From: Patescibacteria group bacterium
GTDB taxonomy: Bacteria; Patescibacteriota; Saccharimonadia; Saccharimonadales; JANWIN01
NCBI GenBank assembly: GCA_035480855.1
Contig: DATIHJ010000008.1
Coordinates: forward strand, 17,308 to 81,307
DNA length: 64,000 nucleotides
Direction: 5' to 3'
Shown here piece after piece: positions 1-56,416 of this stretch. Both the position numbers and the translations under genes were made by a program. The first letter of the stretch is position 1. The number at the start of each line of letters is the position of its first letter. The notes below the pieces were generated by a model. It was not told the DNA's origin and ran no database searches. It worked only from the letters and a program-made list of their open reading frames with translations.

Positions 1-102
1 TTCATATGCTACGTCGAAATCATCTAAGACTTTCGCGGCCTCACACATAACTGCCATATCCGATTCCGATCCCATAATTATGCCAACTAGCGCCTTTGCC
101 AT
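1..102 (-). CDS. purE: N5-carboxyaminoimidazole ribonucleotide mutase PurE, N-terminal fragment (gene runs off window start)
   Basis: Minus-strand ATG at 102; hand translation MAKALVGIIMGSESDMAVMCEAAKVLDDFDVAYE matches the PurE N-terminus (IIMGSxSD motif); directly downstream of purK. Confidence 0.7.
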   Translation of the reverse strand, partial: MAKALVGIIMGSESDMAVMCEAAKVLDDFDVAYE

Positions 103-110
103 AAGTACTC

Positions 111-1253
111 CTATAAATCTATCTTAGCCCGAGCTGATCGGGCATGTCTTCGTGCTGTTTCTAATGTATCAGCAATGGCCGTAATATGTCCCATTTTACG
201 GTCAACTTTTGTTGGAGATTTACCATATAGGTGCGTACTAATACCACGTATGCCAAGAGCTTGGTCTAATCCCGAGACTTTTGTTTTACCATTGCGCTCA
301 CCCAATATGTTTATCATAACGACGGCTGGTACAACCATGTCCGTACTGCCTAGCGGCAAGCCACTAATGGCGCGGATATGCTGTTCAAACTGCGAGGTCC
401 GGCTGGCCTCAATAGTGTAATGGCCAGAATTATGTACTCGCGGCGCAATTTCGTTAACTAGAACCTTGCCATCTTTTGTCAGGAACATTTCAATACCAAA
501 CACACCTGCTCCGCTCAACTTTTTGGCAACATTTTTGGCAAGAGCTGTGGCTCGCTTGACAACTAGTGGACTTACATTTGCTGGGGCTTGGACTTCCACG
601 CAAATATTACGATCATGAATAGTTTCAACCACTGGGTAGGCAATAACGTTGTTCTTCATATCTCGAGCTACCATTACGGCTAATTCCTTAACAAAAGGAA
701 CATAGGCTTCGGCGTAAAGCTCTTTACCAGCAAAAAAGGCTAAAGCATTTGTAACTTCTTTTGGACTTGTTACTAACATATTGCCACGGCCGTCATAAGC
801 TCCGTGGCGAGTTTTAATAAACATTTTGCCACCAAACTTATTAAGGATTTTTTGGGCACTTTTCTCGTCTTTAATTTCCTTGAATGGTGAAACAGAAATG
901 CCTGACTTCTTCAAAAAATTCTTTTGTTTCAGTTTGTCCTGGATTAGCTGAATGGTATTAGGGGAGGGGTTCACTGGCTTGCCCAGCTTAGATATAGCTT
1001 CTAGTGCAGTGGCATTTAAATGCTCGATCTCTATAGTTATATAATCTGCTCGACTAGCCAGTTTTTTTAGGGCAGCGCTATCATATAAGTCCGCCACAAT
1101 TTCCTCTGCGCCAACCTGTGCAGCTGGACTATTTGAAGAGGGATTCACCACTATCACTTCAAAACCAAGCGGTTTGGCGGCTAGCGTGAGCATACGTCCC
1201 AATTGCCCACCACCAACGATGCCAATGGTTCCCGCGCCTTGCATTGCATACAT
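111..1253 (-). CDS. purK: N5-carboxyaminoimidazole ribonucleotide synthase PurK (ATP-grasp)
   Basis: 380-aa ORF; N-terminal GIVGGGQLGRM nucleotide-binding motif and ATP-grasp architecture typical of PurK; purine gene neighbourhood. Confidence 0.85.
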   Translation of the reverse strand: MYAMQGAGTIGIVGGGQLGRMLTLAAKPLGFEVIVVNPSSNSPAAQVGAEEIVADLYDSAALKKLASRADYITIEIEHLNATALEAISKLGKPVNPSPNTIQLIQDKLKQKNFLKKSGISVSPFKEIKDEKSAQKILNKFGGKMFIKTRHGAYDGRGNMLVTSPKEVTNALAFFAGKELYAEAYVPFVKELAVMVARDMKNNVIAYPVVETIHDRNICVEVQAPANVSPLVVKRATALAKNVAKKLSGAGVFGIEMFLTKDGKVLVNEIAPRVHNSGHYTIEASRTSQFEQHIRAISGLPLGSTDMVVPAVVMINILGERNGKTKVSGLDQALGIRGISTHLYGKSPTKVDRKMGHITAIADTLETARRHARSARAKIDL

Positions 1254-1300: not shown

Positions 1301-2254
1301 ATGGGAACGCAGACAATTAACAAGACAAATTTTCATTTTCCTGGTCAAACTGGGTTTGCTAAGGGTAGCGTACGCGATATTTATACTATAAACGATAAAT
1401 ACTTAGCCATGGTCGTAACTGATAGAATTTCAGCCTTTGACGTACTTTTGCCAGTTGCAATTCCAAACAAAGGACAGGTACTGTCGCAGCTAGCCACCTA
1501 CTTTTTAGATGCCACTAAAGATATTATTCCTAATTGGCTTATTAGCTCACCCGATCCCAACGTAGTTCTGGGCTATAAATGCCAGCCTTATAAAATTGAA
1601 GTAGTTATTCGTGGATATTTATGTGGTCATGCCTGGCGCGAATATAAGAGTGGTAAGCGTGAACTTTGTGGAGTAAAAATGTCTGAAGGCCTCAAAGAAA
1701 ATGATAAATTTCCAGAGCCCATTATTACTCCGGCTACCCATGCTGAGCAGGGGCATGACGAAGATATTTCAGCTAAAGATATTGTTAAACGCGGGTTAAT
1801 ACCAGCTGACGATTGGGTCAAGATTGAAAAATACACTCGCAAGCTCTATCAGCGAGGAAGTAAAATGGCAGCCAAACGAGGTCTGATACTGGTAGATACA
1901 AAATATGAGTTTGGTAGAAAAAATAGCCGACTTGTACTCATGGATGAGATTCATACCCCAGATTCTTCACGCTACTTTTATGAAGAAGGATATGTAGACA
2001 AGCAAAAGCGAGGTGAACCGCAGCACCAATTGTCCAAAGAGTTTGTACGCGAATGGCTAATAGAACACGATTTCCAGGGACTAAAGGGCCAAACCATGCC
2101 AGCAATCCCAGCAACTTTTGTCCAAGAAATATCAGAGCGCTACATAGAACTTTATGAGCAGTTAACTGGTAAGAAACTCAAAAAACCTTTACCGAGCGAA
2201 AATATACTAGAGCGAATAGAGTTAAATCTTAATACAGCGCTATCAAGGCTATAA
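1301..2254 (+). CDS. purC: SAICAR synthetase PurC
   Basis: GSVRDIY and DRISAFD motifs characteristic of PurC; 317 aa. Confidence 0.85.
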   Translation: MGTQTINKTNFHFPGQTGFAKGSVRDIYTINDKYLAMVVTDRISAFDVLLPVAIPNKGQVLSQLATYFLDATKDIIPNWLISSPDPNVVLGYKCQPYKIEVVIRGYLCGHAWREYKSGKRELCGVKMSEGLKENDKFPEPIITPATHAEQGHDEDISAKDIVKRGLIPADDWVKIEKYTRKLYQRGSKMAAKRGLILVDTKYEFGRKNSRLVLMDEIHTPDSSRYFYEEGYVDKQKRGEPQHQLSKEFVREWLIEHDFQGLKGQTMPAIPATFVQEISERYIELYEQLTGKKLKKPLPSENILERIELNLNTALSRL

Positions 2255-3657
2255 TGGCAGGCAAATTAAAACCATTTACATTACCAGAGCCGGCTAAAGA
2301 TCAAAATTTTAGTAGTATTGATCCGCTAGATAGTCGTTACTACGACATTGAAATTTCACGCTACTTATCTGAGCAAAGTCGCATTTCCTACCAAGCATAT
2401 ATGGAAGCTGCATTAGCTCACGCGCTAGCCGACTATGGAATTTGCAGCCGTAAGATTGCAAATGAAATTGAAGCATCCGCACGAAAAGTTACAGCCCAAG
2501 AGGTTTACAAAGAAGAGCAGAAGACAAAACACGACATAAAAGCGCTTGTTAATTGCATCAAAAAGTACGTAAGTAAACAGGCACAACCATATGTACATTT
2601 TGGAGCGACTTCATACGACATTGTAGCTAGCGCCCAAGTGCTACAAATGCGAAGTGCAATTAATGAACTAGTAGTTCCAAGACTTAAAAATCTTAATGAC
2701 GTATTAATTGAGCTGACTGAACGCTATGCAGGGGCTACACAAATAGGACGCACACATGGCCAGCATGCTCTACCCATAACCTTTGGGTTCGCAGTGGCAG
2801 AATATGTGCAGCGTATAGGTGAGTGCACTCAGGCAATAGAAGCTTTAACGAGCGAATTGCCAGGTAAATTTTCTGGGGCCGTTGGAGCCTATAACGCACT
2901 TAGTACATTTATTGACAAGCCTCTTGAATTTGAAAAAACGGTCCTGGATTACGTTGGAATAATGCCATCAAGTTACTCCACACAAATTTTGCCACCAGAG
3001 TACATGGTTCGCTTAATCGACGAACAAGTTATTGCCGCTGGAATTATGGCCAACCTTGCCCATGATATGAGGCATTTACAGCGCAGTGAAATTGGCGAGG
3101 TACGTGAAAGGTTTGAAACTGGACAGACCGGGTCATCAACTATGGCACACAAGCGTAACCCGTGGAATTTTGAAAATATTGTCAGTATGAGTAAGCAAAT
3201 TATTGCCCAGGGCGTTAACGCCAACTTAAATCTTAGTAGCGAACACCAGCGCGACTTAACAGATTCCGCGTCATCTCGCTTTTATAGTGTAGTAATCGCA
3301 GGCATAGCTTCTATGGCAACTAGGCTTTGTAATGTTATGAGCAAACTAGAAGTGGACGAGGAAGCCATGCAACGAAACCTGAATATGAGCGGAGGCGCAA
3401 TTGCTGCCGAGCCTCTATATTTATTACTAGCTAAATACGGTCACACATCGGCCCATGAAAAATCTAAAGCCCTAGCTCATAAATCTTTAGACTCCGGCAA
3501 GACACTAGTTGAGACTATAGCTGCCGATAAAGAAGCATCTGCTTACTGGCAAAAATTTACCAAAAAGCAACAACAGATCATTGAGTACCCTGAAAAGTAC
3601 TACACGGGTCTAGCAGCCAAAAAAGCTCGAACGGTAGCCAAACGCTGGCACATATAA
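2254..3657 (+). CDS. purB: adenylosuccinate lyase PurB
   Basis: Fumarate-lyase superfamily signature GSSTMAHKRNP; 467 aa; ATG overlaps the purC stop. Confidence 0.85.
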   Translation: MAGKLKPFTLPEPAKDQNFSSIDPLDSRYYDIEISRYLSEQSRISYQAYMEAALAHALADYGICSRKIANEIEASARKVTAQEVYKEEQKTKHDIKALVNCIKKYVSKQAQPYVHFGATSYDIVASAQVLQMRSAINELVVPRLKNLNDVLIELTERYAGATQIGRTHGQHALPITFGFAVAEYVQRIGECTQAIEALTSELPGKFSGAVGAYNALSTFIDKPLEFEKTVLDYVGIMPSSYSTQILPPEYMVRLIDEQVIAAGIMANLAHDMRHLQRSEIGEVRERFETGQTGSSTMAHKRNPWNFENIVSMSKQIIAQGVNANLNLSSEHQRDLTDSASSRFYSVVIAGIASMATRLCNVMSKLEVDEEAMQRNLNMSGGAIAAEPLYLLLAKYGHTSAHEKSKALAHKSLDSGKTLVETIAADKEASAYWQKFTKKQQQIIEYPEKYYTGLAAKKARTVAKRWHI

Positions 3658-3720
3658 CGCTGTAAACTTCTGTTTTATTTGGCTCGATATTGCCTAGAGA
3701 GCTATACTTGAACGATATAG

Positions 3721-4785
3721 ATTAAGTTCCTAGCGAGCTCGGGAGACGAGGGTCATATTACGAAAAGCTCAGCATTCAAGATAGCTACTCTCGGCAGTCA
3801 TTCTGCACTGCAAATCCTTAAGGGTGCTCACGACGAAGGTTTTAAAAACTTAGTAATTTGTGAAAAAGGTAGGGCACAAGCGTACCGTGCCTTCCAGGTC
3901 GCAGACCAAATTATCGAGCTTGAATCCTACGATGAACTAGGCGGACTTGAAAAGCAGTTGCTTAAAGATAATGTGATCTTAGTACCGCATGGATCATTCT
4001 TCCGGGCATACGGATTACCTGCCCTCAATGCTTCCAGGGTCCACTACTTTGGCAATAAACACATATTGCCATGGGAAGAGGACCGGTCTAAACAACGGGA
4101 GTGGCTAAAACAAGCTGGCCTTACATTGCCTAAAATTTACAAGCGTCCACAAGATATTAACGGACCTGTAATAATTAAATTTCATGGAGCAGGAGGAGGC
4201 AAAGGTTTCTTTTTGGCACGTAGCCCGAGCGAATTTAAACGCAAAATTGCCGAACACAAAGGCAAGCCCTACATTATTCAGCAATATATTGTTGGCGCGC
4301 CGCTATATATCCATTACTTTTATTCGCCACTCACTAAAGAACTTGAAGTAATGAGCATGGATAAACGCTACGAAACCAACGTAGATTCTATTGGACGGAT
4401 TGCCGCTAAAGACCAGATGGATCTAAATATTGAAAGTTCATATAACATTATGGGCAATCTACCAGTAGTTGCCCGTGAATCCCTACTGCCAGAAATATTT
4501 GCAATGGGAGAACAAGTAGTTGAAGCCTCACGTAAGCTAACTCCTAACGGCTTATTTGGTCCGTTTTGCTTAGAAACTATCGTAACTCCAGAACTTGAGT
4601 TTTTTGTCTTTGAAATTTCAGCCCGCATTGTAGCCGGCACCAATCCATATGTTAACGGTTCGCCCTATACCGATCTTCGCTACAAGGAACCTATGAGTAC
4701 AGGTCGCCGGGTAGCCCGCGAAGTCAAGCTTGCCATTGCTGGAGGCAAACTAGAAAAGGTGCTCTCTAATGGTTACTCCAACTGA
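3721..4785 (+). CDS. purP: 5-formaminoimidazole-4-carboxamide ribonucleotide synthetase PurP (archaeal-type, ATP-grasp), copy 1; start codon uncertain
   Basis: Reading frame is open from the stop at 3718-3720. The conserved PurP N-terminus IATLGSHSALQILKGAHDEGF is encoded at 3781-3840, upstream of the first canonical start (TTG at 3958) used by the ORF track. There is no in-frame ATG, GTG or TTG between 3721 and 3957, but ATT codons at 3721 and 3757 could start it (GAGGG lies 5 nt before 3757). The C-terminal part matches PurP (GPFCLE..., MSTGRRVAREVK). Confidence 0.6.
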   Translation: MKFLASSGDEGHITKSSAFKIATLGSHSALQILKGAHDEGFKNLVICEKGRAQAYRAFQVADQIIELESYDELGGLEKQLLKDNVILVPHGSFFRAYGLPALNASRVHYFGNKHILPWEEDRSKQREWLKQAGLTLPKIYKRPQDINGPVIIKFHGAGGGKGFFLARSPSEFKRKIAEHKGKPYIIQQYIVGAPLYIHYFYSPLTKELEVMSMDKRYETNVDSIGRIAAKDQMDLNIESSYNIMGNLPVVARESLLPEIFAMGEQVVEASRKLTPNGLFGPFCLETIVTPELEFFVFEISARIVAGTNPYVNGSPYTDLRYKEPMSTGRRVAREVKLAIAGGKLEKVLSNGYSN

Positions 4786-5896
4786 AGTTGCAAAAATCGC
4801 GGCCAAATATAAGCAATCAGAAATCCGAATTGGCTGTATAGGTGGGCACAGTGCGCTGGACATTTGCCGGGGCGCTAAGACTGAAGGATTTGAAACGGTG
4901 GTAGTTGCCCAGCGCGGGCGCGATAAAACCTACAGCCAATATTACAAAACTCGTGGCAATAAAGGCTGTGTTGATCACGTAATACTAGTCGATAAGTTTT
5001 CAGATATCACTAGTTCCAAAGTCCAGCAGCAGCTGCGGGATCTCAATGTAATCATGGTTCATAGCCGTTATTTTTGGGTCTATTGCAACTATTCTGAGAT
5101 AGAGAACGACTTCATGGTGCCTATTTTTGGCAATCGCCGGCTAGTTCGTAAAGAGGAGCGCGACGAAACCAAAAACCAATACTTTTTACTAGAACAAGCA
5201 GGTATAAAAATTCCCAAGCAGTTTGCCAAACCCCAAGATATTGACTGTCTTGTAATTGTTAAGGCCAATGAGGCCGCAAGGGGATATGAACGAGCATTCT
5301 TTTTGGTGAGCAGCTACAGCGAATACGAGCTAACTGCAAAGAAACTAATATCAAAAGGTACAGTTACCAAGGGTTCTCTTAAAAAAGCTGTAATTGAAGA
5401 ATTTGTGGTTGGCCCGCAACTAAATTTAAACTTTTTCTACTCTCCACTAGACGGGCAAGTGGAGCTGCTTGGTACCGACATGCGCCGCCAAACCAACATT
5501 GATGGTTTGCTTAGACTAACTGCACCAGAACAAACAGAAGTACTTAAACGCATAGAACCCAAGTACATAGAAAACGGACATGTAGCAATTACCATCAAAG
5601 AGTCACTTATAGAAAAGGCTTATGATGCAGGGGAGAAGTTTGTTAAAGCAGCGGGCAAACATTACCCGCCAGGCATGATTGGCCCATTTGCTCTGCAAGG
5701 TGCTGTCACGGCAGGGCCGCCAGTAGAAGAACTAGTAATATTTGATGTCAGCATGCGTATGCCTGGAAGTCCAGGAACCATGTTTACGCCATACACCGGA
5801 TATTTATATGGTCAAAATATGAGTGTTGGACAACGCGTAGCAAAAGAGATAAAAACCGCAATCCAGCAGAAAAAACTCGCAACCGTTATTACTTAA
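4769..5896 (+). CDS. purP: PurP paralogue, copy 2 (FAICAR synthetase family)
   Basis: N-terminus IGCIGGHSALDICRGAKTEGF, then FGNRRL, MIGPFALQ and SVGQRVAKEIK, collinear with archaeal PurP; start overlaps the end of copy 1. Confidence 0.7.
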   Translation: MVTPTEVAKIAAKYKQSEIRIGCIGGHSALDICRGAKTEGFETVVVAQRGRDKTYSQYYKTRGNKGCVDHVILVDKFSDITSSKVQQQLRDLNVIMVHSRYFWVYCNYSEIENDFMVPIFGNRRLVRKEERDETKNQYFLLEQAGIKIPKQFAKPQDIDCLVIVKANEAARGYERAFFLVSSYSEYELTAKKLISKGTVTKGSLKKAVIEEFVVGPQLNLNFFYSPLDGQVELLGTDMRRQTNIDGLLRLTAPEQTEVLKRIEPKYIENGHVAITIKESLIEKAYDAGEKFVKAAGKHYPPGMIGPFALQGAVTAGPPVEELVIFDVSMRMPGSPGTMFTPYTGYLYGQNMSVGQRVAKEIKTAIQQKKLATVIT

Positions 5897-5910
5897 TTAC
5901 TAATCTTCGA
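5896..5910. repeat. 15-bp direct repeat ATTACTAATCTTCGA, left copy (overlaps purP2 stop)
   Basis: Exact 15-mer recurs at 6512-6526; both copies are followed by TG and a GAAATAG/AAAATAG-like stretch. Confidence 0.8.
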
Positions 5911-5927
5911 TGTGATCAATGAAATAG

Positions 5928-5978
5928 TTGACATAATCATTATGTAGACGTACAATTAAAACGTATTACTAAAACGTA
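5928..5978 (+). promoter_or_regulatory. putative sigma70-type promoter and operator repeats for the toxin-antitoxin operon
   Basis: TTGACA (5928-5933), 17 nt, TACAAT (5951-5956); direct repeats TAAAACGTA at 5957-5965 and 5970-5978; GGAG Shine-Dalgarno 8 nt before the ATG at 5993. Confidence 0.4.
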
Positions 5979-5992
5979 CTGGAGCCATATTA

Positions 5993-6235
5993 ATGAGTAC
6001 TAAAACTGTTTCTGCGTCTGATCTTAGAAGCAATCTTGCTGATGCCCTTGATTCTGTCAACGAGGATGACATTCTTATTGTCACTCGAAGAGGAAAAAAA
6101 GAGCGAGCTATTATAGATCTCGATAAACTAGAAGATCTCTTGGCTGCTAATGACCCAGATTACCTGGCTGCTATTAGAGACGCACGTGAGAGTAAGGAAT
6201 ACTTAAGTCACGACGAGGTATTTGGAGATATATAA
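5993..6235 (+). CDS. Phd/YefM-family antitoxin
   Basis: 80-aa protein with Phd/YefM-like N-terminus (LRSNLADALDSV...ILIVTRRGK); stop overlaps the toxin start. Confidence 0.7.
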   Translation: MSTKTVSASDLRSNLADALDSVNEDDILIVTRRGKKERAIIDLDKLEDLLAANDPDYLAAIRDARESKEYLSHDEVFGDI

Positions 6236-6499
6236 ATGTCTTCATATACCCTGATATATAAGAAGCCGGCCGCAAAGGCAATACAAAAACTCTCACCTCA
6301 AATAAGAAAGCGTCTTAAATCAAAACTAGAGTGGTTTATCTCTCAAGATGATCCCATTTCCTTTGCAGAGGCTCTGACTAAGCCTGCTGACGCTCAATAT
6401 AGATATAGGATCGGAACTTACAGAGTATTATTTGATGTTGAAGGCAAAAACATAGTAGTACTTTTAGTACGACATAGACGAGAAGTTTACAAAAGATAG
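6236..6499 (+). CDS. RelE/ParE-family toxin
   Basis: 87-aa basic protein; C-terminal YRYRIGTYRVLFDVEGKNIVVLLVRHRREVY is typical of RelE/StbE/ParE toxins; translationally coupled to the antitoxin. Confidence 0.7.
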   Translation: MSSYTLIYKKPAAKAIQKLSPQIRKRLKSKLEWFISQDDPISFAEALTKPADAQYRYRIGTYRVLFDVEGKNIVVLLVRHRREVYKR

Positions 6500-7139: not shown

Positions 7140-7361
7140 CTAATTGCGGCCCCAATGGATACGGCTCCAAATGCGCTCATGCCAGTAATAAATTATAGTG
7201 GCAAGCACCGCGTTCCAGCCAGTTATCACAAAGGCGTCGCCGGTTTTGTGAGTTACAGCTAAAGTTACAGCAAATACAACGACCATAATGATAACGCGGT
7301 AAGTTATGGTTTTTACTAAAGATCGTTTCCAATGATCGTGATGTATTTTTTTCATTCCCAC
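7140..7361 (-). CDS. small membrane protein (DUF2061-like)
   Basis: 73 aa with two hydrophobic helices; overlaps the guaA start by a few nucleotides. Confidence 0.4.
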   Translation of the reverse strand: MGMKKIHHDHWKRSLVKTITYRVIIMVVVFAVTLAVTHKTGDAFVITGWNAVLATIIYYWHERIWSRIHWGRN

Positions 7362-8869
7362 TCCATAGTTGCTGGCGGCTTAGTGGTTATATCATATACC
7401 ACGCGGGATATACCTGGCACCTCATTTACTATGCGGGTAGATAGTTTTGCTAGGACTTTGTATGGAACTTGTGCCCAATCCGCACTCATCCGATCTTTAG
7501 TAGTTACAATGCGAATGGCTACAACTTCGCCATAAAAACGCCCATCACCTTTAACGGCAGTGCTACTAGCTCCGGTCATAATTGACCAGCATTGAAATAT
7601 GCGATCATACCAGCCAGATTTTTTCATTTCTTCTACAACTATATTATCGGCTTGAACTTGTCTCGCTAACCTTTGCTTGGTGACTTCACCCATAATACGC
7701 ACGGCATGTCCTGGACCTGGGAACGGTTGCTGGAAAACCATATCTTTTGGCATACCAGCTTTTACGCCAATCTTGCGCACCTGGTCGGTATAGTAGTAGC
7801 GAAGCGGCTCAAGTAGCTGGAGCTTCATGTTCTTTGGTAGACCACCAACATTATGATGGCTTTTTATATGAGCTGACCTTTTAGTGCCCTGCGAATGGAT
7901 AAAATCGGCATAGGTTGTACCTTGCAATAAAAACGTAATGGATGGGTCCTTTGCCATTTCGCGCTCAAATAGCTTTATGTAGAGGTTACCTATTGTTTTA
8001 CGTTTAGTTTCGGGATCGGTAATACCCTTTAGGGTAGTCAAGAATTCTTGACGGGCATTTATAACCTTTACCCTAACTCCGAGCACTTTTGGAAAATCGT
8101 GTTTGATGCGACCTAGAGTTTCTTCGCGCATAAGTCCACTGTCTATATAGATAGGTAAAAACTGCTTTCCAATAGCTCGGGCGGTTAATGTCCCAGCAAC
8201 AGCAGAATCAGTCCCGCCTGAAAAAGCACCAATAACTTTGCGATTACCGACTTTCTCTTTTATCTCATTGATTATTTTGTCTATGTCAATTTTTTCAGTT
8301 TTAACCGGCAGATTACAAACCCGTGTAGCAAAGTTTTTGAGCATTTGCGACCCCTGTTTGGTATGAGATGCCTCTGGGTGAAACTGAACTCCGTAAAAAT
8401 GCCTAGAAGCGTCGCCAACGGCAGCGAACACTACATCTTCAGTACTGCCGAAAATCTTAAAACCTTTTGGTATTTTTGTAACAGTAGTTCCATGGGATTC
8501 AAATACCTGACTAGTTGTCGGTAGCCCATAGAAAAAGTTAGCAAAATCGGAAATTGTCAGCTGGGCTGGACCGTATTCTTTCTGGCCAGGTGTAACCTTG
8601 CCACCAAGTAGTTGTGCCATTAGCTGCCAGCCATAGCAAATGCCTAAAATCGGAATACCCAGCTTAAAGATTTTGGCATCAATGCTTGGTGCGCCCTTTT
8701 CGTAAACTGAAGCTGGTCCACCAGATAGGATTAGTCCATCTGGGTTATGAAGTTTAATGCCCTCTTGTGCATCGTCTGGGTCAATGATTACTGAATCTAT
8801 GCCAACATCTTTGAGGCGACGAGAAATAAGGTGTGTCATTTGCGAACCAAAGTCGATAATAACCAGCAT
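7352..8869 (-). CDS. guaA: GMP synthase (glutamine-hydrolysing) GuaA
   Basis: N-terminal class I glutamine amidotransferase (GICYGWQ), SGGxDS ATP-pyrophosphatase loop (AFSGGTDSAV) and C-terminal GMP synthase dimerisation domain. Confidence 0.9.
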   Translation of the reverse strand: MLVIIDFGSQMTHLISRRLKDVGIDSVIIDPDDAQEGIKLHNPDGLILSGGPASVYEKGAPSIDAKIFKLGIPILGICYGWQLMAQLLGGKVTPGQKEYGPAQLTISDFANFFYGLPTTSQVFESHGTTVTKIPKGFKIFGSTEDVVFAAVGDASRHFYGVQFHPEASHTKQGSQMLKNFATRVCNLPVKTEKIDIDKIINEIKEKVGNRKVIGAFSGGTDSAVAGTLTARAIGKQFLPIYIDSGLMREETLGRIKHDFPKVLGVRVKVINARQEFLTTLKGITDPETKRKTIGNLYIKLFEREMAKDPSITFLLQGTTYADFIHSQGTKRSAHIKSHHNVGGLPKNMKLQLLEPLRYYYTDQVRKIGVKAGMPKDMVFQQPFPGPGHAVRIMGEVTKQRLARQVQADNIVVEEMKKSGWYDRIFQCWSIMTGASSTAVKGDGRFYGEVVAIRIVTTKDRMSADWAQVPYKVLAKLSTRIVNEVPGISRVVYDITTKPPATMEWE

Positions 8870-9839: not shown

Positions 9840-11711
9840 ATGGATAAACAACCGTTTCGCAAGCAGTCCTCTCCAGTGGGAAATAACAACCGCAAAAACT
9901 TCAAGAACTTTGGTTTTGTAGCCCTGCTAATTCTAATTGGTCTTATTATTTTTGCAGCTTTCAGCCAACCTAGCACCCTCAAGTCGGTGCCATTTTCTCA
10001 GGTTATCAGCCAGGCCAATTCGGGTGATGTTAAAGAAATTAGTATTCAGGGCAATACACTCAGCATTACTAAAAAGGGTGAGAGCCAAGCCTCCGAAAAA
10101 TCTTATAAAGACAGTAGTGCCAGTATTTACCAACAAGGTCTAACTAACAAAAACGTAATTGTTGATATTAAACCTGAATCTAGCGCTGGCTCTACATGGA
10201 CAAACCTTGGAATCTCTATTTTGCCAGTTATATTGATAGCCCTTGTCCTGTTCTTTATGCTCAGAAGTGCTCAGGGGCAAGGTAACCAAGCCATGAGCTT
10301 TGGTAAAAGCCGAGCCCGCTTGTATGGCAACGAGAAAGAAAAGGTAACTTTCCATGATATTGCTGGAACTCAAGAAGCCAAAATTGATCTGCAAGAAGTC
10401 GTAGAGTTTTTGAAATTTCCCAAAAAGTTTGAATCAGTCGGTGCCACTATTCCAAAAGGAGTTCTGCTGGTGGGTCCCCCAGGTACAGGTAAAACTATGC
10501 TGGCCCGTGCAGTTGCAGGTGAGGCCAATGTGCCATTCTTTAGTATTTCTGGTTCGGAGTTTGTAGAGATGTTTGTGGGTGTCGGAGCTAGCCGTGTCCG
10601 TGACTTGTTTGCCAAAGCCAAGAAGAACGCACCATGCATTATCTTTATTGACGAAATCGATGCAGTTGGCCGCCGACGTGGTAGCGGTATGGGTGGTGGA
10701 CATGATGAACGTGAACAAACTCTCAACCAAATTTTGGTAGAAATGGACGGCTTTGAGCAAGGTACCAATGTAATAGTGCTAGCGGCCACCAACCGTTCAG
10801 ATGTGCTTGACCCAGCGTTGCTGCGACCTGGTCGTTTTGACCGACGCGTTAACATCGACTTGCCTGACCGGAAGGACCGCGAAGCTATTCTAAAGGTCCA
10901 TTTTGCCAAGAAGCCCCTAGCCAAAGATGTAAACTTGGACTCGCTAGCTGCTAAATCGGCTGGCTCATCCGGCGCCGACCTATCAAATATTGCCAACGAG
11001 GCAGCTATCATCGCTGCTCGCCATAACCACAATCAGATTAGCCAAAGCGACGTTACCTCAGCCTTTGAAAAGGTGGCAATTGGCCCAGAACGCAAGAGCA
11101 AGGTTATGAACGAGCACGAAAAGGAATTAACTGCCTATCACGAGGCAGGACACGCTGTAGTTGGCCACGTACTACCTGACAGCGACTCGGTGCACAAAGT
11201 TACAATTATTCCTCGCGGCGGCACAGGCGGGGTAACTTGGTTTATTCCACCAGAAGATAAGAGCTACCACAGCATTATTGAGTTCAAAGATGTGCTAGCC
11301 AGGATGCTAGGCGGGCGGGTTGCAGAGGAAGTTATTTATGGTCCTGACCGTATTACGACCGGGGCAGGCAATGATCTACAAAAGGCCGCTGAACTAGCAC
11401 GCGACATGGTAGTTAACCAAGGTATGGGCAGTAAACTACGTGACCAAGTATTCCATGTTGATGAAGGCATGATGATGGATAAATTGGTTCAAGAACGCCA
11501 GTATTCAGATGATACCGCCAAAATTATTGACGACGAAGTGGAACACCTCATTACAGAAGCAGGCGTGCGAGCACGAAGCGTTATAAAATCAAATATTGCT
11601 AAACTAGAAGTGCTAAAAGACCGTTTGCTAGAGAAAGAAACCGTCGAAGCAGAAGAAGTAGAGAAAATCCTGTCTGGCACTACCATGCCTAAAGCCGCCG
11701 CCTTGTACTAG
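9840..11711 (+). CDS. ftsH: ATP-dependent zinc metalloprotease FtsH
   Basis: N-terminal transmembrane and periplasmic region, AAA Walker A GPPGTGKT, second region of homology, HEAGH zinc motif. Confidence 0.9.
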
Positions 11712-11788
11712 GGACTAAAACACGGAAAATAGTAAAAATGAGGTTTTAGCCTAGTTCCTGTTTTCTAGTTCCTCTATACTAATACCGA

Positions 11789-13375
11789 ATGAACCGAATA
11801 GTAAATCGTGCCAATAAACGGGTAAGCATGAGTAATGCAGCCGTACTGCTAATTGTGACCGCTTTGCTGGCTCAATTGCTAGGCTTTTTCCGTAACCGCC
11901 TAGTTAGTACTAACTTTACCCAGGTTAACCCTGGTAGTACGGATGCTTTTTTTGCTGCCTTCCAGATTCCAGATTTCTTTTTTCTGACCATTGCGGCAGG
12001 GGCGCTCGGCGTGGCTTTTATGCCAGTTTTAGCTGACCGCCTGCACCTAAAAGACCGAAAAGGTATCTGGGAAATTACCAGTAGCCTGCTCAATTTGCTG
12101 AGCGTTATTATGTTTATCGTTGCGATTATTATCTTTGTGTTTGCCAAACCTCTGCTTCACAACATAGTGGCACCCAAGCTTGGTCCTGTACAGCTTAACC
12201 AAGCTACAACCATCATGCGCATCATAGCCCTAAATCCGCTGCTGTTTACCTTATCTGGAATTCTGACCAGTGTGCAGCAAACGTTTGGACGGTTCTTTTT
12301 TTATGCCATTGCGCCGCTAGCCTATAACCTTGCCATCATTGCCAGCATCTACATATTTAAGTACCACCTGGGAGTTATTGGTCTCGGAGTTGGTGCAGTT
12401 ATTGGTTCATCTATACAGCTGGCAATTGCCCTACTGGGCATGTGGGGGCTTGGCTTTCGTTACCGACCAAAGATTAACTTCCGCTCACGTGATTTCCAGC
12501 TCATTATGCGTACCATGCCACCCCGTGCTGTCGACCAAGGAGTAGATTCTATTAACAGCATTGTTGAAACCAACCGGGCCAGCACGCTTGGTAAAGGCGC
12601 TGTCAGCTACTATAACTTTGCTACTACGCTTATGAACGTGCCAGTTATGCTGTTTGGAACCGCTATTGCCACTGCAGCCTTTCCGCGGCTCAACGACCGT
12701 TTAGCTGCACATCGGCCAGATTTGTTTCACAGGGATTTCTTTAAAGTACTTCGAGTAATGATCTGGATTGCAATGCCTGTAGCTGTCATATCTTTCTTTT
12801 GCCGGGGATATTTGGCCCGTTTGCTCTACGGTAGTGTGGCGCCACAGGTAGCCTTGATATTTGGCTTTTTAGCAGTCGCCATCTTTGCGCGCATCATCTA
12901 CACCATTCTGTCGCGCTATTTCTATGCTCAGAAAGATACCAAAACACCGCTGTTTGTATCACTCTTTGTGATTGCCCTGAATGTCTTCCTAGCCTTCCGA
13001 CTAGTCAAACCGTCAACCTACGGTATTTCTGGGCTAGCTCTGGCCCAATCCATAGCCGCTGCTTCAGAGGTAGTTCTGCTATTTGCAATTATGTTTTGGC
13101 GCGACCCGTACATGTTTAACCGTGCCTTCTGGGGATCAATTGTCCGTATTGTGTCAGTAACTGGTTTTAGTGTGTTAGCAGCCTTTATAATGGTTTCGCT
13201 CTTGCCGCTGACTATAGGAGATCGTGGTTTTGTGACCCTTGGTTTTAAGTTTGGCTTAATTGCGGGCGTGACAGTACTTGTACATGTAGGGATGTCCGCG
13301 TTATTTGGACTTGATGAAGCCAAAGTAGTTTTGCGCAAAGCCTATAGGATTATTCTCGGTCCAATCCGAATTTAG
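11789..13375 (+). CDS. murJ: lipid II flippase MurJ/MviN
   Basis: 528-aa polytopic membrane protein with MurJ-like N-terminal region (FFRNRLVSTNF, DAFFAAFQIPD). Confidence 0.75.
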   Translation: MNRIVNRANKRVSMSNAAVLLIVTALLAQLLGFFRNRLVSTNFTQVNPGSTDAFFAAFQIPDFFFLTIAAGALGVAFMPVLADRLHLKDRKGIWEITSSLLNLLSVIMFIVAIIIFVFAKPLLHNIVAPKLGPVQLNQATTIMRIIALNPLLFTLSGILTSVQQTFGRFFFYAIAPLAYNLAIIASIYIFKYHLGVIGLGVGAVIGSSIQLAIALLGMWGLGFRYRPKINFRSRDFQLIMRTMPPRAVDQGVDSINSIVETNRASTLGKGAVSYYNFATTLMNVPVMLFGTAIATAAFPRLNDRLAAHRPDLFHRDFFKVLRVMIWIAMPVAVISFFCRGYLARLLYGSVAPQVALIFGFLAVAIFARIIYTILSRYFYAQKDTKTPLFVSLFVIALNVFLAFRLVKPSTYGISGLALAQSIAAASEVVLLFAIMFWRDPYMFNRAFWGSIVRIVSVTGFSVLAAFIMVSLLPLTIGDRGFVTLGFKFGLIAGVTVLVHVGMSALFGLDEAKVVLRKAYRIILGPIRI

Positions 13376-17199: not shown

Positions 17200-17449
17200 T
17201 GGCGAATTTTCACCAAAGCCACCAGAAATCCTAGCTGGTGCGATAGTAATGGCTGAGGGAATAATAAGGCTATCATGGGCTTTAGATGGTCCTGGCGCTA
17301 CCATACCCCCGGAGGCAGTCCAGCGCTTTGTAGACGAATACAATTTATCTCCATCCGAAACCGTAGCTGTAACCACTGTTGCAACTAACAAAATTGGACG
17401 CACGATAGATGATGGACTAGAGGAGAGTTTTTATGGCCCAATCGAATAA
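17192..17449 (+). CDS. hypothetical small protein between hrcA and grpE
   Basis: 85-aa ORF filling the hrcA-grpE gap with short overlaps at both ends; no recognisable motif. Confidence 0.3.
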   Translation: MNSGEFSPKPPEILAGAIVMAEGIIRLSWALDGPGATIPPEAVQRFVDEYNLSPSETVAVTTVATNKIGRTIDDGLEESFYGPIE

Positions 17450-17921
17450 GCCAAAAACAACTAACAATATAAAACAGCTTCATCAGCAGATTGTTGAGCT
17501 AACAGAAGCATTGCAACGCGAACGGGCTGATGCAGAGAACATTCGTAGGCGACATGATGAACAAATTGGTGGGCTAAAAAACATGGTTACAGCCAATGTA
17601 GTTCAGCAGCTTTTGCCAGTTATAGACAACTTTGAGCGTGCACTCAAACATGTGCCGGAGGATCTAAAAAACAATGACTATGTCAAAGGTGTAGGAGGAG
17701 TAGTCAAGCAGTTTGAAAAGACCCTGGCAGATATGGGCGTGGAACGTATACAAACAGTGGGGAAAGCATTCGATCCACGCCTGCACGAAGCCATTAGTAT
17801 GGACGGTGAACATGGTAGCCATGAAGTAGTGAGCGAAGAGCTACAATCAGGTTATGTTCTGGGAGACAACGTCCTACGCCATTCCATGGTAAAAGTTCGT
17901 ATGGAGGACAAAAAGTCATGA
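17433..17921 (+). CDS. grpE: nucleotide exchange factor GrpE
   Basis: Coiled-coil N-terminus (ADAENIRRR) and GrpE C-terminal beta domain; position in the hsp operon. Confidence 0.8.
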   Translation: MAQSNKPKTTNNIKQLHQQIVELTEALQRERADAENIRRRHDEQIGGLKNMVTANVVQQLLPVIDNFERALKHVPEDLKNNDYVKGVGGVVKQFEKTLADMGVERIQTVGKAFDPRLHEAISMDGEHGSHEVVSEELQSGYVLGDNVLRHSMVKVRMEDKKS

Positions 17922-23974: not shown

Positions 23975-25354
23975 ATGACGATTCAGAATTTACCCCTTGA
24001 ATACAACAAAAGCACGCCAATTGGTGTCGTAGGCACTGATCCGTACAATTTTTTGCTATACCAAAAATTCTTTGATGATTTTCAGATTATTACAGAGGTC
24101 AAACAAGATTGGCTACACGACCTTCCCATAGACGATAAGGTGAAGCTGACATGGCTAGGCCGGTCTAAACAATACGGAGAATCCCCAACACGTATGTTAC
24201 GCTCCAAAAAATTTGTAGAGATGGTCAAGGCTGATCCTAAGCGTAAATATGTACTGTATTCACCACTAGATCCTCCATACAAGGTCAATCCGCTAACCTA
24301 CCTCATGAACTCTCCAACTATTGCCCATGCATATGAGAATAAGCGTTATTTCCGTGATGAGTTTGCTGATCTTATACGAGTACCAGAGTATGAAATTAGA
24401 TACATGGGCGATCTAGATCGTGCCGCCGCATACCGTGACTTGCGTGAAAGGTTTGGCGGATCATTTGTGCTCCAAGACGAGGAATCGTCTGGCTCAAAGG
24501 GCACTTATGTCATCCACGACCAAGACGAATATGTTGATGCCGTAAAGAATCTCAAAAAATATTCAGAGGGCCGCACCATTGTAGTATCCCAGTTTCTAAA
24601 GGGAGAAAACTCAAGCATCCAAGTTTGTATTACAAAGCATGGTATTTTTAGCGGTGGTATTCAACGCCAATTGCTAGATAGTAAGTATCTTTGTAATCCT
24701 AAACTAGCTGGCGCAAGCAAATGGTGTGGTGGTGAAGTTGGTACCACTTATCCAGATATTGTCAGGCACCAAGCCCAAGAAATTGCTACCATTGTGGGTT
24801 CTGAACTAGCTAGCCATGGCTACAAAGGTATATTTGGAATCGACTTGATAGTAACACCAACCAATGAAGTCTATGCTATAGAAATAAATGCCCGCTTAAC
24901 TGGTTACTCTCACATAATTAGTGAGTTAGAGCTACTAGAAGGCAAAATACCCATGATGCTCTTACATGCGCTTGAGCTTGGTAACTTTAAATACGAAATT
25001 ACTGACCTCGAGGCACTGCCAAGTAGCGGTGTATACAAAAAGCCCGTGTCACTGTTAATTATGAATAATCCTCTGGCAGAAGACATTACTCTAAAGAACT
25101 ATATTCGTCCTGGTCTGTATAAGTACAAAGACGGTAAAATAAGCTTTGTAAAAGAAGCTTACTCTATAGATACGCTCAAGGGTGATGACACATTTCTAAT
25201 TTTTTCTCGCCATAACACAGGGGACACTATTGAGTCTGGTAAGAGAATACTTAAAATAGCTAAATTTGGTAAAACAATGTCTAAGGGTGAACTCAACACT
25301 AAGACGCAAGATCTGACCAAAGCAATCAAGAAACACTTTAAGTTACCCCAGTAA
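23975..25354 (+). CDS. ATP-grasp domain protein (putative carboxylate-amine ligase)
   Basis: C-terminal half has ATP-grasp hallmarks (GIFGIDLIVTPTNEVYAIEINARLTG; Lys/Glu-rich nucleotide-binding region). Confidence 0.55.
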   Translation: MTIQNLPLEYNKSTPIGVVGTDPYNFLLYQKFFDDFQIITEVKQDWLHDLPIDDKVKLTWLGRSKQYGESPTRMLRSKKFVEMVKADPKRKYVLYSPLDPPYKVNPLTYLMNSPTIAHAYENKRYFRDEFADLIRVPEYEIRYMGDLDRAAAYRDLRERFGGSFVLQDEESSGSKGTYVIHDQDEYVDAVKNLKKYSEGRTIVVSQFLKGENSSIQVCITKHGIFSGGIQRQLLDSKYLCNPKLAGASKWCGGEVGTTYPDIVRHQAQEIATIVGSELASHGYKGIFGIDLIVTPTNEVYAIEINARLTGYSHIISELELLEGKIPMMLLHALELGNFKYEITDLEALPSSGVYKKPVSLLIMNNPLAEDITLKNYIRPGLYKYKDGKISFVKEAYSIDTLKGDDTFLIFSRHNTGDTIESGKRILKIAKFGKTMSKGELNTKTQDLTKAIKKHFKLPQ

Positions 25355-36868: not shown

Positions 36869-37177
36869 CTACTCTTGGAATGGGTTGTTGCGGGCTTGGT
36901 TGAATAGAGATTGTACGTCGACACTATTATCTTGAAGCTGTTTGATTTTATCAACAACTGATTGATCAATTTTAGGCGATTGGCTAGTTTTAAGTTTGGC
37001 AGTTATATCGTCTTGGCTGGGTGTTTGGTTATTTAGCACGTTTATTCGATAGACTAATATGCTGTAAATGCTAAATAAGATCACAATAAATATAAGTACT
37101 CTATAGCGCCGAAGTAATTGCCAAAGCTCTGGTAATTTTGCCTTTATTGTCTTAAGATCTAATTTTTGCTTTTTCAT
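36869..37177 (-). CDS. small single-pass membrane protein, last gene of the pilus operon
   Basis: 102 aa, N-terminal transmembrane helix; overlaps the pilO end by 4 nt. Confidence 0.35.
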   Translation of the reverse strand: MKKQKLDLKTIKAKLPELWQLLRRYRVLIFIVILFSIYSILVYRINVLNNQTPSQDDITAKLKTSQSPKIDQSVVDKIKQLQDNSVDVQSLFNQARNNPFQE

Positions 37178-37782
37178 GGCTTTATATACGCATCCAAAAC
37201 TAGTGTGAACGTTAGTGTATTAGGATTTTGAGGGTTTGGGATAATGGTAACATTAGCTACCTGAGCGGTACGGCGGTTTTGTTCTAAATTATTTAAAAAG
37301 TTAATAAGCTGAGTATATGATATTGGGTTTGATGCGTCCTGCTGTATGGTAATTTGCATGTCTAAGACACCAGGGATGCCCTTGACCGGCAGTACTTGTG
37401 TGAGTTTATTAGATGGTGTGGTTGTTGGCAAACCACTGCTACTGGAACCAAGTGTCGATGCTGGAAATGTTATAGCCGATAGTTTTATAGAGTTGTTATT
37501 GGCAAAATTAACAATTTCTCTGACAGCTTCAGCCTGATCTTTGTCCTGCGGCACAATAATTTTGGCTTCTTTTTCTAGTTCTGAATACTTAGCTACATCT
37601 TTTTTAGCTTTAGCTAGTGAAACCTGTTGTTGGTCAAGTACAGCGTTATTAAGCTTAAGATCAACCAATTTCTGTGATCGTTGCTGGAGCATTTGGTCGC
37701 CTAGAATTGCTGTTACAAAAATACCAATACCAAGTAGTGAAGTAATTACAATCATGCCATAAAATACTCGTTTGCCATTCAT
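37174..37782 (-). CDS. pilO: type IV pilus assembly protein PilO-like
   Basis: N-terminal transmembrane helix, coiled coil, then periplasmic domain; position after pilM-pilN. Confidence 0.5.
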   Translation of the reverse strand: MNGKRVFYGMIVITSLLGIGIFVTAILGDQMLQQRSQKLVDLKLNNAVLDQQQVSLAKAKKDVAKYSELEKEAKIIVPQDKDQAEAVREIVNFANNNSIKLSAITFPASTLGSSSSGLPTTTPSNKLTQVLPVKGIPGVLDMQITIQQDASNPISYTQLINFLNNLEQNRRTAQVANVTIIPNPQNPNTLTFTLVLDAYIKP

Positions 37783-38387
37783 GGTTTGCTTACCTTAGAT
37801 TGAGAGTTATTTATAAACAAGAATGGATTACTTTTAGCAAACTGTGCTCGAATATTAATTGTGCAGGGATAACGGGGATTCGTTGCGCCAGAAGTTAAGC
37901 AGTTAACGTTTAATATGTCCGCCTTATTAAAAATTTTATTGGCAGGGTCCTGCAAATTCACCTGTACTTGTGTAGCCGTATTATAGTCGCTAGCAATGGC
38001 AGCTAAATCAATACCGCCTTGGGTTTGACTTATTTTTAGGTCAGTTAGCCTAGCGTTTGCTGGTATTGCTGTGCCGATTTGCTGAATCAGTTTAGAAAAC
38101 AGCACTTCACGCGATAACACTTGTACGACAAGTTTTAGGCTCCCAGAAATATCCTGAACTTGTTTTTGTGTTTCACTTAGCTGCTGAGAGGCAAGTTCGT
38201 CAGATGTTTTTACCTTTTGTTGGGTGTAATCTTGAATTGATTGGTTCATGTAGAATTGCCCAAATAACACAACTACCAATACTCCCAAAATTGAAAGAGA
38301 AAACGCAATTGACCATCTCAGTAGCTGTGTATTACGCCTACCATAAACTAAGTCTTGTTTGACATTTGGCGGGAGTAAATTGATCAT
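37779..38387 (-). CDS. pilN: type IV pilus assembly protein PilN-like
   Basis: Begins MINLLP (the INLLP motif that binds PilM), single transmembrane helix, coiled coil. Confidence 0.6.
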   Translation of the reverse strand: MINLLPPNVKQDLVYGRRNTQLLRWSIAFSLSILGVLVVVLFGQFYMNQSIQDYTQQKVKTSDELASQQLSETQKQVQDISGSLKLVVQVLSREVLFSKLIQQIGTAIPANARLTDLKISQTQGGIDLAAIASDYNTATQVQVNLQDPANKIFNKADILNVNCLTSGATNPRYPCTINIRAQFAKSNPFLFINNSQSKVSKP

Positions 38388-39466: not shown

Positions 39467-39509
39467 AACTGATTATGACAATATAGCATATTCATGGTTT
39501 ACTCATCCG

Positions 39510-40946: not shown

Positions 40947-40947
40947 C

Positions 40948-41724: not shown

Positions 41725-42173
41725 TGCTGTGCGATTCCGTTTCTGGTAATTAGTAAACGTAATTCCAGGGGTGGGGCGGTGCTTTTTTGGTAAGCCACAC
41801 TTATATCAATTACTTTGGAATCAGGAATGGACTGTAAGGGATCGGAACCCGGCAACGATGCAGTTTGAGTAACTGTTAAATTTGGCGAATATGTAAATGT
41901 GTTACCACTACCACCTTCTGCTGCGAAGGTATTATTTGGGTAACAATTGGCTGAACTGGTTATATCGTCATATACAAGTGCACGGTCAATTTCTGGGCAG
42001 GCACTTAGTACGGCATAGATTTCGTTAAGTTGTTTGGCGACAGTATATGAGCGCCGCACGCTATCAAATGCATTTGCAATGCCAATAACAATAAAAGCGA
42101 ATATTGCGATTGCCAACAATAATTCAACAGAAGTAAAGCCTTTTTGTCTTAGATATGCTCTAGGATGTAACAT
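41721..42173 (-). CDS. type IV minor pilin (prepilin-type N-terminus)
   Basis: KGFTSVELLLAIAIFAFIVIG class III signal. Confidence 0.55.
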   Translation of the reverse strand: MLHPRAYLRQKGFTSVELLLAIAIFAFIVIGIANAFDSVRRSYTVAKQLNEIYAVLSACPEIDRALVYDDITSSANCYPNNTFAAEGGSGNTFTYSPNLTVTQTASLPGSDPLQSIPDSKVIDISVAYQKSTAPPLELRLLITRNGIAQQ

Positions 42174-42190
42174 GCTAGTGGTTATTATAC

Positions 42191-42218: not shown

Positions 42219-42243
42219 AATGCGATTACTTGATTTACCTATA

Positions 42244-45408: not shown

Positions 45409-45411
45409 AGT

Positions 45412-56414: not shown

Positions 56415-56416
56415 AA

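Follow-up and report, generated by a model that had tools for sequence, protein, structure and literature searches.

What brings two adjacent genes of the PurP family, long treated as an archaeal signature, into the purine gene cluster of a bacterium belonging to the Candidate Phyla Radiation (CPR), and what do the two encoded proteins accomplish together? The question is raised by a stretch of 64,000 nucleotides from a Saccharimonadales genome (assembly GCA_035480855.1, contig DATIHJ010000008.1), hereafter the window, to which all coordinates refer; the two genes are designated PurP1 (copy 1) and PurP2 (copy 2), and the loci compared with them bear L-numbers. The two proteins belong to distinct PurP sub-clusters, Ib and II, whose genes are widespread as a pair in at least three CPR lineages, in contradiction to a survey in which, out of 1,403 complete genomes, only archaeal ones were found to contain PurP (Cruz 2019, PMC6486802). 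In the reading to which we give a moderate preference, the pair would function as a two-protein formate- and ATP-dependent formylase of 5-aminoimidazole-4-carboxamide ribonucleotide (AICAR, or ZMP).

Both reading frames, the first open over 3721-4785 and the second located at 4769-5896, occur on the same strand and encode an N-terminal DUF1246 domain followed by a DUF1297 ATP-grasp domain, in agreement with a preliminary description based on the sequence. The Pfam matches lie far over the gathering scores in PurP1 (DUF1246, expectation value E 1.1e-38, 132 bits; DUF1297, E 1.6e-70, 237 bits) as well as in PurP2 (DUF1246, E 2.7e-40, 138 bits; DUF1297, E 3.6e-62, 210 bits). The profile search that had been set beforehand as the test of the assignment retrieved for both copies, among the NCBIfam models, only those of PurP (formate--phosphoribosylaminoimidazolecarboxamide ligase), and the membership of the archaeal PurP family stands. 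The equivalog cutoffs of these models (556-603 bits) are reached by neither copy, the best scores being 396.6 bits for PurP1 (cutoff 580) and 329.3 bits for PurP2 (cutoff 556), and both window proteins have diverged from the archaeal sequences curated as seeds. The best match among solved structures is PF1517 of Pyrococcus furiosus (2r84) for PurP1 (E 2.6e-107) and PurP of Methanocaldococcus jannaschii (MJ0136, 2r7k) for PurP2 (E 4.6e-83). The residues His27 and Arg314 that contact the formyl group (MJ0136 numbering) correspond to H15 and R290 in PurP1 and to H27 and R330 in PurP2. The motifs listed in the preliminary description are present but split between the copies, IATLGSHSAL, FGNKHIL, LFGPFCLE and GRRVAREVK occurring in PurP1 and IGCIGGHSAL, FGNRRL, MIGPFALQ and GQRVAKEIK in PurP2, whereas MIGPFCLQ belongs to the M. 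jannaschii sequence and not to PurP1. The whole PurP family amounts to 592 representatives at 50% identity (E up to 1e-3) among 1.84 billion sequences.

According to Brown 2011 (PMC3261824), a (K/R)GG(K/R)G loop together with Asn258 defines PurP clusters Ia and Ib, whereas in cluster II the loop is longer by two residues, lacks the glycines and goes with an invariant His258; cluster I and cluster II have His27 and Arg314 in common as conserved residues. An alignment of 148 sequences combined the paralogues of the loci, both types included, with two PDB chains and with 50%-identity representatives of full length; after the aberrant ones had been dropped, 139 sequences were classified, 66 in cluster I and 73 in cluster II. 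All PurP1-type proteins possess Asn258 and a 15-residue glycine-rich loop (KFHGAGGGKGFF in the window), all PurP2-type proteins possess His258 and a loop mostly two residues longer (KANEAARGYERAFF in the window), and the correlation between loop type and residue 258 is perfect over the 139 sequences. The PurP1 loop reads GAGGGKG, with Gly at the first position where the consensus shows Lys or Arg, and Asn234 is the equivalent of Asn258; the PurP2 loop, charged and lacking these glycines, comprises 17 residues versus 15, and His271 occupies position 258. All the residues at least 95% invariant within their own cluster are kept by both window proteins. Those common to both clusters include His27, Glu122, Lys156, Arg228, Glu265 and Arg314, and the cluster-specific switches consist of G93R, Y208N, E230Q, N258H, V262T, E310D and A317G. 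In a neighbour-joining (NJ) tree, PurP1 groups with PF1517 and not with MJ0136. On sequence criteria, PurP1 is thus assigned to cluster Ib (the "PurP II" of Zhang, PF1517 type) and PurP2 to cluster II ("PurP III", PF0421 type), the latter being placed by the loop and His258 diagnostics. The notion of a duplicated purP has to be abandoned, since 34% identity between the copies, the Ib and II diagnostics and the same gene order in 41 loci indicate that they are not a local duplication. The comparison of the ATP-grasp active sites that had been proposed does separate the copies, which differ at residue 258 (Asn versus His) and in the loop and share Lys156.

As a separate observation, the column of Ser94 of MJ0136, a contact of the AICAR 5'-phosphate located near residue 101 of PurP2, contains Tyr in the cluster II proteins of the CPR and of L011, a contig labelled "Woesearchaeota". 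Ser94 is retained in the other loci of the DPANN archaea (Diapherotrites, Parvarchaeota, Aenigmarchaeota, Nanoarchaeota, Nanohaloarchaeota and allied phyla) and in most cluster II representatives, and the adjoining Gly93 column is occupied by Arg throughout cluster II.

In Archaea, cluster Ib and cluster II proteins co-occur one-to-one in 61 taxa (Brown 2011, PMC3261824; Cruz 2019, PMC6486802), and the two genes are adjacent in the Sulfolobales, Pyrobaculum and Korarchaeum. The same association was found in the 41 loci in which both genes are visible, distributed among Saccharimonadales, Peregrinibacteria/Peribacteria, Levyibacteria, other Patescibacteria and metagenome-assembled genomes with DPANN labels (Woese-, Aenigmat-, Nanohalo- and Micrarchaeota): in all 41, the Ib gene precedes the II gene on the same strand. 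The intergenic gap is shorter than 700 nucleotides in 36 of them, and the stop of the first gene overlaps the start of the second (-1 to -41 nucleotides) in 20, comprising the window and every locus of the Saccharimonadales clade. In five loci the pair is interrupted by one or two genes, the insert being purH in L036 and L039 of the Levyibacteria clade. The genes inserted in DPANN loci were considered as candidate cyclohydrolases and proved uninformative: those of L011 encode a HAD hydrolase plus part of an EamA protein, and those of L024 are two reading frames devoid of Pfam hits. No isolated Ib or II member occurs among the loci with a sufficiently long flank.

The trees of the two proteins are congruent. 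Over 36 loci, the pairwise distances of the Ib proteins correlate with those of the II proteins (r = 0.92, slope 0.96), a value of r reached by none of 2000 Mantel permutations. In the bootstrapped NJ tree of PurP1, the Saccharimonadales form a clade at 92% (93% once L011, an 8.6-kb contig that is possibly mis-binned, is added), the Peregrinibacteria are grouped at 100%, and L036 and L039 of the Levyibacteria clade fall inside a Micrarchaeota clade, also at 100%; the tree of PurP2 agrees for the first two groups, and the position of the Levyibacteria is not resolved there. The Levyibacteria-type clusters (L036, L039) share with the Micrarchaeota clusters (L031, L033, L043) a common synteny of small purL, purQ and PurP1 as well as a purF-purN fusion, which suggests that the whole operon was transferred between CPR and DPANN.

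The horizontal acquisition proposed in the preliminary description is supported by the distribution of PurP, reported from the Archaea alone in the survey mentioned above (PMC6486802), and by the closest non-CPR relatives found in a scan of the GTDB species genomes, which are DPANN archaea with 53-63% identity. A transfer between domains accounts for this most economically, and since the gene trees are congruent the pair would have moved as one unit. At least two such transfers can be inferred, the source being probably DPANN-like archaea from which the pair was acquired more than once; the direction from archaea to CPR is deduced from the distribution in the literature rather than from the present trees. 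The pair would have reached the CPR as a two-gene unit; in this genome it is integrated in a bacterial-type pur cluster, in the order purL-purM-purE-purK, then purC-purB-PurP1-PurP2, with guaA nearby. A recent acquisition was also sought in the base composition and rejected, the G+C content of positions 2001-6000 (0.428-0.431) lying within the range of the window (0.38-0.47), so that there is no compositional anomaly. Separately, a PurP1 homologue 70% identical to that of the window (P0342) is encoded by a contig of 557 kb whose label reads "Nevskiaceae bacterium" (Gammaproteobacteria); the label is probably wrong and the contig that of a CPR organism, otherwise the homologue would represent a non-CPR bacterial PurP.

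The assignment of the host to a CPR/Saccharibacteria-type organism, put forward at the outset as a supposition, holds: a protein identical to PurP2, encoded by a contig of 115,848 bp, is labelled Patescibacteria, and the nearest genomes are those of Candidatus Saccharimonadales, which match PurP1 with 70-77% identity among the GTDB species genomes. The 120 best matches of PurP2 (clusters at 90% identity) are all metagenomic and, apart from the self-hit, 69-82% identical, and the named ones among them are Saccharibacteria or Saccharimonadales. Saccharimonadia are usually called nucleotide auxotrophs in the literature, and the occurrence of any de novo purine gene in such a host had been regarded as noteworthy in itself; this view is overstated, as Peribacteria have been reported with essentially complete nucleotide synthesis (PMC4736985) and these 120 best matches, at least 69% identical, carry CPR names wherever they are named.

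In the window and its relatives the genomic context is purine-specific. Steps 4-9 of the pathway (purL, purM, purK/purE, purC, purB and the PurP pair) together with guaA are documented for this organism by the window and an identical contig. A seeded tblastn of the 64-kb window revealed no purF, purD, purN, purH, purA, prs or folD, purT and purO are equally absent from it, and steps 1-3 and 10 are found neither in the window nor on the identical contigs. Similarly, no purH or purO occurs within 10 kb in the pur clusters of the Saccharimonadales clade (window, L006, L007, L012, L047), which is weak evidence because the pur genes of CPR are often scattered. Depending on the lineage, the pair is accompanied by purA and guaA only, as in many Saccharimonadales loci and in Korarchaeum, or stands alone, as in the Peregrinibacteria, whereas related clusters comprise folD, the purF-purN fusion and a full-length purH with intact catalytic motifs. 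A full-length PurH with intact KH(T/N)NPCG and YGENPHQ motifs is encoded beside the pair in L013, L016, L033, L036 and L039 (two loci of the Levyibacteria clade, two of other Patescibacteria and one of Micrarchaeota), which rules out for these five loci the idea of a PurH dead in its AICAR formyltransferase (AICARFT) domain. In the Saccharibacteria locus L014 (HKST-UBA56), purH lies 5 kb from the pair; there, at about 17430-17640, a run of N masks exactly the AICARFT Lys-His motif. The folate-sparing pathway of the preliminary description is therefore plausible at step 9, and the claim can go no further: with purH, folD and purN as neighbours in relatives, the pathway is not demonstrably folate-free.

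Two further arrangements were observed among the Saccharimonadales. In L006 (13776-15136) and L007 (3084-4482), two extra genes lacking from the window cluster stand between purE and purM, one for a protein of 266/283 residues with only a sub-threshold HAD-like match and the other for an AAA_28 (NadR-type kinase-like) protein. On L052, a 777-kb contig, the pair stands alone (11116-13359) and adjoins an S-adenosylhomocysteine hydrolase gene and a PfkB-family sugar/nucleoside kinase gene, an arrangement that could fit a salvage route from nucleoside to ZMP and to inosine monophosphate (IMP).

With regard to function, formate-dependent AICAR formylation had been presented as an established property of the family. 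This remains correct for MJ0136 of cluster Ia, the only protein for which FAICAR synthetase activity was demonstrated, as far as Zhang 2008 is relayed by Brown 2011 (PMC3261824) and Cruz 2019 (PMC6486802); it does not extend to PF1517 (Ib) and PF0421 (II), each of which, in the same second-hand accounts, was inactive singly, PF1517 being able to bind ATP and AICAR. A heterohexamer of "PurP II" and "PurP III" in the numbering of Zhang, which corresponds to Ib and II, was already speculated upon by Cruz 2019 (PMC6486802).

In the reading that we favour with moderate confidence, PurP1 and PurP2, adjacent and overlapping members of two sub-clusters with congruent trees and under purifying selection, would be co-inherited, co-expressed and non-identical paralogues acting together as one enzyme system. 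This system would catalyse step 9 of the pathway, in which AICAR, free formate and ATP are converted to formyl-AICAR (FAICAR), presumably by way of formyl phosphate, the intermediate used by M. jannaschii PurP, and its active form would probably be a hetero-oligomer. The Ib subunit retains the putative glycine-rich ATP lid and the Asn predicted to hold the AICAR carboxamide, and the II subunit the ATP-grasp lysine, the presumed acidic metal ligands and the His and Arg that would contact the formyl group. Owing to its longer charged loop and the His replacing Asn258, the II subunit is expected to contribute differently, and its role may consist of substrate or product binding, a structural function or a second catalytic step.

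Several points weigh against this interpretation. Activity has been reported for no Ib or II protein, either singly or combined; linked genes are always expected to be adjacent and congruent, so that these properties offer no proof of a physical interaction; and no Ib-II fusion occurs among the 150 best representatives, the longest of which has 477 residues. In addition, the intact PurH encoded beside the pair in five loci would render the pair redundant there for AICAR formylation, and the expression level of PurP1 is uncertain because its gene is devoid of a canonical start.

Among the alternatives, a division of labour between the two proteins appears rather unlikely. The Ib protein would be the FAICAR synthetase and the II protein would close FAICAR to IMP, with no need for PurH or PurO; the II protein would then be the IMP cyclohydrolase so far "missing" from Crenarchaeota and Pyrococci. 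Brown 2011 (PMC3261824) speculated that one of the paralogues plays this role, the presence of a duplicate purP being partly correlated with the absence of purO/purH2, and by 2019 no cyclohydrolase had been identified in the Crenarchaeota. The replacement in cluster II of the AICAR-carboxamide Asn by an invariant His and the loss of the Gly-rich ATP lid, with the nucleotide-phosphate and formyl contacts retained, are consistent with such a change of reaction, as are the Saccharimonadales-clade clusters without neighbouring purH or purO and the loci where the pair keeps only purA/guaA or adjoins the hydrolase and PfkB kinase genes. However, an intact purH adjoins or splits the pair in L036 and L039 and is also found in two other Patescibacteria and one Micrarchaeota, and a purH lies 5 kb away in the Saccharibacteria locus; a gene missing from a 10-kb flank may still be encoded elsewhere in the genome; and the ATP-grasp Lys156 and the acidic ligands (Gln297, Asp310), needless for a cyclohydrolase, are kept by the II protein.

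It is equally improbable that the two proteins are independent isozymes, each a self-sufficient formate-dependent ligase differing from the other in regulation or substrate, one of which might formylate glycinamide ribonucleotide as PurT does; their adjacency would then reflect operon inheritance. The core ATP-grasp and formyl-contact residues are present in both, a single gene suffices for the activity of M. jannaschii PurP, and an apparent redundancy with PurH is tolerated in Methanosarcinales, Levyibacteria and Micrarchaeota. Yet the one-to-one co-occurrence, with no isolated member at the loci of sufficient flank, and the inactivity of both P. furiosus proteins taken singly, as relayed in PMC3261824 and PMC6486802, argue against self-sufficiency; moreover, the clusters of Levyibacteria and Micrarchaeota already contain purN, fused to purF, and the many loci that keep the pair with only purA and guaA correspond to the IMP end of the pathway.

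More doubtful is the idea that Ib and II build an obligate two-protein machine for both last steps, ZMP formylation and closure of FAICAR to IMP. In this machine the "crenarchaeal" IMP cyclohydrolase, sought for so long, would correspond to the II subunit, which carries the invariant His258. If true, a compact folate-independent ZMP-to-IMP module would exist in the CPR, kept where the rest of the pathway was lost, beside purA/guaA or a PfkB kinase, and the mesophilic CPR versions would make a 15-year-old question testable in Escherichia coli.

The manner in which PurP1 is translated deserves separate consideration. Position 3721 is the first codon after a stop (3718-3720), and no ATG, GTG or TTG occurs in frame until TTG 3958, from which a protein of 275 residues, deprived of the His-bearing N-terminal motif, would be made. 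In all other loci, with the exception of L051, a canonical start, nearly always ATG, precedes IATLGSH by 5-12 codons; the closest full-length relatives (81-83% identity) begin with M-[A/G]-R-S-T-K, their ATG being aligned with GAG 3748-3750 of the window. L051 (866-995), an independent contig from the Joint Genome Institute with 92% amino-acid identity, likewise lacks a canonical start and shows AGC at the place of ATT 3757. Between the window and L051, 71% of the synonymous but 5% of the non-synonymous sites of PurP1 differ, which corresponds to a ratio of non-synonymous to synonymous rates (omega) of ~0.02, and omega is ~0.09 over the 79 codons that precede TTG 3958; the purB control of this comparison was discarded, as an indel spoilt its ungapped codon alignment. 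The leader from TATACT through the Shine-Dalgarno-like GGGAGACGAGGG is ~91% identical in the window and L051, above the conservation of synonymous sites. The lack of a canonical start in a gene whose N-terminus is under purifying selection implies that PurP1 initiates at a non-canonical codon in the sub-lineage of the window and L051. The candidate codons are ATT 3757, found in the window only, ACG 3760, common to both contigs and located 7 nucleotides after GAGGG, and ATA 3781, common to both and devoid of a Shine-Dalgarno sequence. That PurP1 is instead a start-less pseudogene, with only PurP2 or a truncated 275-residue PurP1 from TTG 3958 being made, is very improbable: the missing start and the products cut by gene callers to 270 and 311 residues on related contigs speak for it, but the equally start-less and strongly constrained L051, the integrity of every cluster invariant, the N-terminal His included, and the conserved leader all speak against it.

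Upstream of the gene, TATACT (3703-3708) is invariant in six Saccharimonadales loci with different upstream genes and conserved in L051 too, and its conservation makes it a candidate -10 box of the PurP1-PurP2 transcript. A generic scan of promoters and terminators remained at chance level (21 found versus 20.1 expected). A riboswitch or leader RNA before PurP1 was considered and rejected: there is no Rfam match at the gathering threshold in the window, positions 3600-3900 give none even when E values up to 1 are admitted, and the fold of the leader is no better than those of shuffled sequences (z = +0.85).

The neighbours expected around the pair, purC-purB upstream and purK-purE on the opposite strand, are as claimed, with 34 codons of purE inside the window (coordinates below).

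Features of the PurP locus (positions within the window)
Feature	Position	Strand	Remarks
purE, 5' end (34 codons)	1..102	-	remainder of the gene read on identical contig L044
purK (N5-carboxyaminoimidazole ribonucleotide synthetase)	111..1253	-	NF004679 417.7 bits (cutoff 326)
purC (succinyl-AICAR synthetase)	1301..2254	+	NF009251 447.8 bits (cutoff 371); Pfam SAICAR_synt
purB (adenylosuccinate lyase)	2254..3657	+	Pfam Lyase_1 + ASL_C
TATACT hexamer, candidate -10 box	3703..3708	+	conserved in six Saccharimonadales loci
Shine-Dalgarno-like purine-rich leader GGGAGACGAGGG	3741..3752	+	same letters in 92%-related contig L051
PurP1, cluster Ib (PF1517-like)	3757..4785	+	342 codons if the start is ATT 3757
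PurP2, cluster II (PF0421-like)	4769..5896	+	375 residues, ATG start
guaA (GMP synthase)	7352..8869	-	Pfam; recurs beside the PurP pair in Saccharimonadales

The 3' end of PurP1 and the start of PurP2 overlap by 17 nucleotides (4769-4785). PurK also matches TIGR01161 at equivalog level (414.9 bits, cutoff 318.4) and possesses the Pfam ATP-grasp and PurK_C domains, and PurB falls slightly short of the TIGR00928 cutoff (308.5 bits for 326). On the minus-strand side, the identical Logan contig L044 extends the cluster with purE, with purM and with the N-terminal part of a purL of the large type; its complete purE encodes the motifs SAHRTP and GGSAHLPGM, which we take, from E. coli PurE, to be those of class I. 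Downstream of PurP2 occur a Phd/ParE toxin-antitoxin pair, a HD_3 hydrolase gene and guaA, the Phd/YefM antitoxin (5993-6235) and ParE-like toxin (6236-6499) genes being inserted between PurP2 and HD_3/guaA, on the identical Logan contigs too. The Logan assemblies of three sequencing runs (L044, L045, L046) all break at one point, 217 codons into purL, and that of run SRR9179560 has a second break, lying between purB and the third codon of PurP1 (end of L045, start of L002), which suggests strain heterogeneity or a repeat. The remaining reading frames of the window scanned with Pfam consist of housekeeping, envelope and type IV pilus proteins. Among them are a 459-residue protein with an ATP-grasp_3 domain (23975-25354; E 8e-12), not related to the pur genes, a type IV pilus cluster (37174-47223) with a PilM-like protein, a pilin with the N_methyl motif, T2SSF and a T2SSE/MshEN ATPase, several frames without Pfam match and a beta-lactamase-family gene inside (42833-43735), and tandem ABC1 atypical-kinase genes of 515 and 504 residues on the minus strand (54867-58114).

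Public databases already carry annotations of these genes, and the present analysis demonstrates no new mechanism; what is new is that a two-paralogue system known from archaea also has members in bacteria (CPR), and no paper linking purP with CPR, DPANN or Saccharibacteria was found in the searchable library. The pair offers a clean operon-level example of gene sharing between CPR and DPANN, exchanged as a unit, and bears both on what the Ib/II pair does and on which protein serves Crenarchaeota and Pyrococci as IMP cyclohydrolase. In this respect, the CPR homologues, probably mesophilic, translationally coupled and located in bacterial operons, should be better suited to co-expression and complementation of E. 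coli purH than the proteins of hyperthermophiles. The picture of auxotrophic Saccharimonadia is qualified by a lineage with purL-purM-purK-purE-purC-purB-PurP, and the retention of the pair with purA/guaA in many others suggests a salvage of ZMP. PurP2 carries the database label "DUF1297" only, and as PurP genes are truncated or misnamed, automated reconstructions of the pathway will under-call step 9.

Compared with known systems, the window proteins resemble MJ0136, the structurally solved member of cluster Ia, by the same two-domain ATP-grasp family, the purine-pathway context and the conservation of His27, Lys156, Arg228, Glu265 and Arg314 in both copies, with 47% identity for PurP1 and 42% for PurP2. 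In contrast to MJ0136, encoded by a single-copy gene and active alone, they are two non-identical paralogues, neither of which belongs to cluster Ia, and PurP2 lacks the Gly-rich loop and has His for Asn258. PurT is an ATP-grasp ligase that uses formate and ATP via formyl phosphate and bypasses the folate-dependent formyl transfer at step 3; as such it is a functional analogue, but it belongs to another ATP-grasp family and acts on another substrate, and its models match purK of the window weakly and the PurP genes not at all. The AICARFT domain of PurH, encoded beside the pair in Levyibacteria, other Patescibacteria and Micrarchaeota and absent from the 64-kb window, catalyses the same step from AICAR to FAICAR, but unlike PurP it has an unrelated fold and depends on folate. 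The closest likeness is shown to the archaeal Ib and II pairs, such as PF1517 and PF0421 and those of Sulfolobales, Pyrobaculum islandicum and Korarchaeum cryptofilum, which are adjacent and one-to-one: PurP1 is 54% identical to PF1517 (2r84), and the window pair is similarly linked to purB and guaA. The window pair differs from them by its bacterial host (Saccharimonadales, CPR), probably a mesophile, by the overlap of its genes, by its setting among a bacterial-type purK, a class I purE and a large purL, and by the Tyr of the CPR cluster II proteins where the archaeal ones have Ser94.

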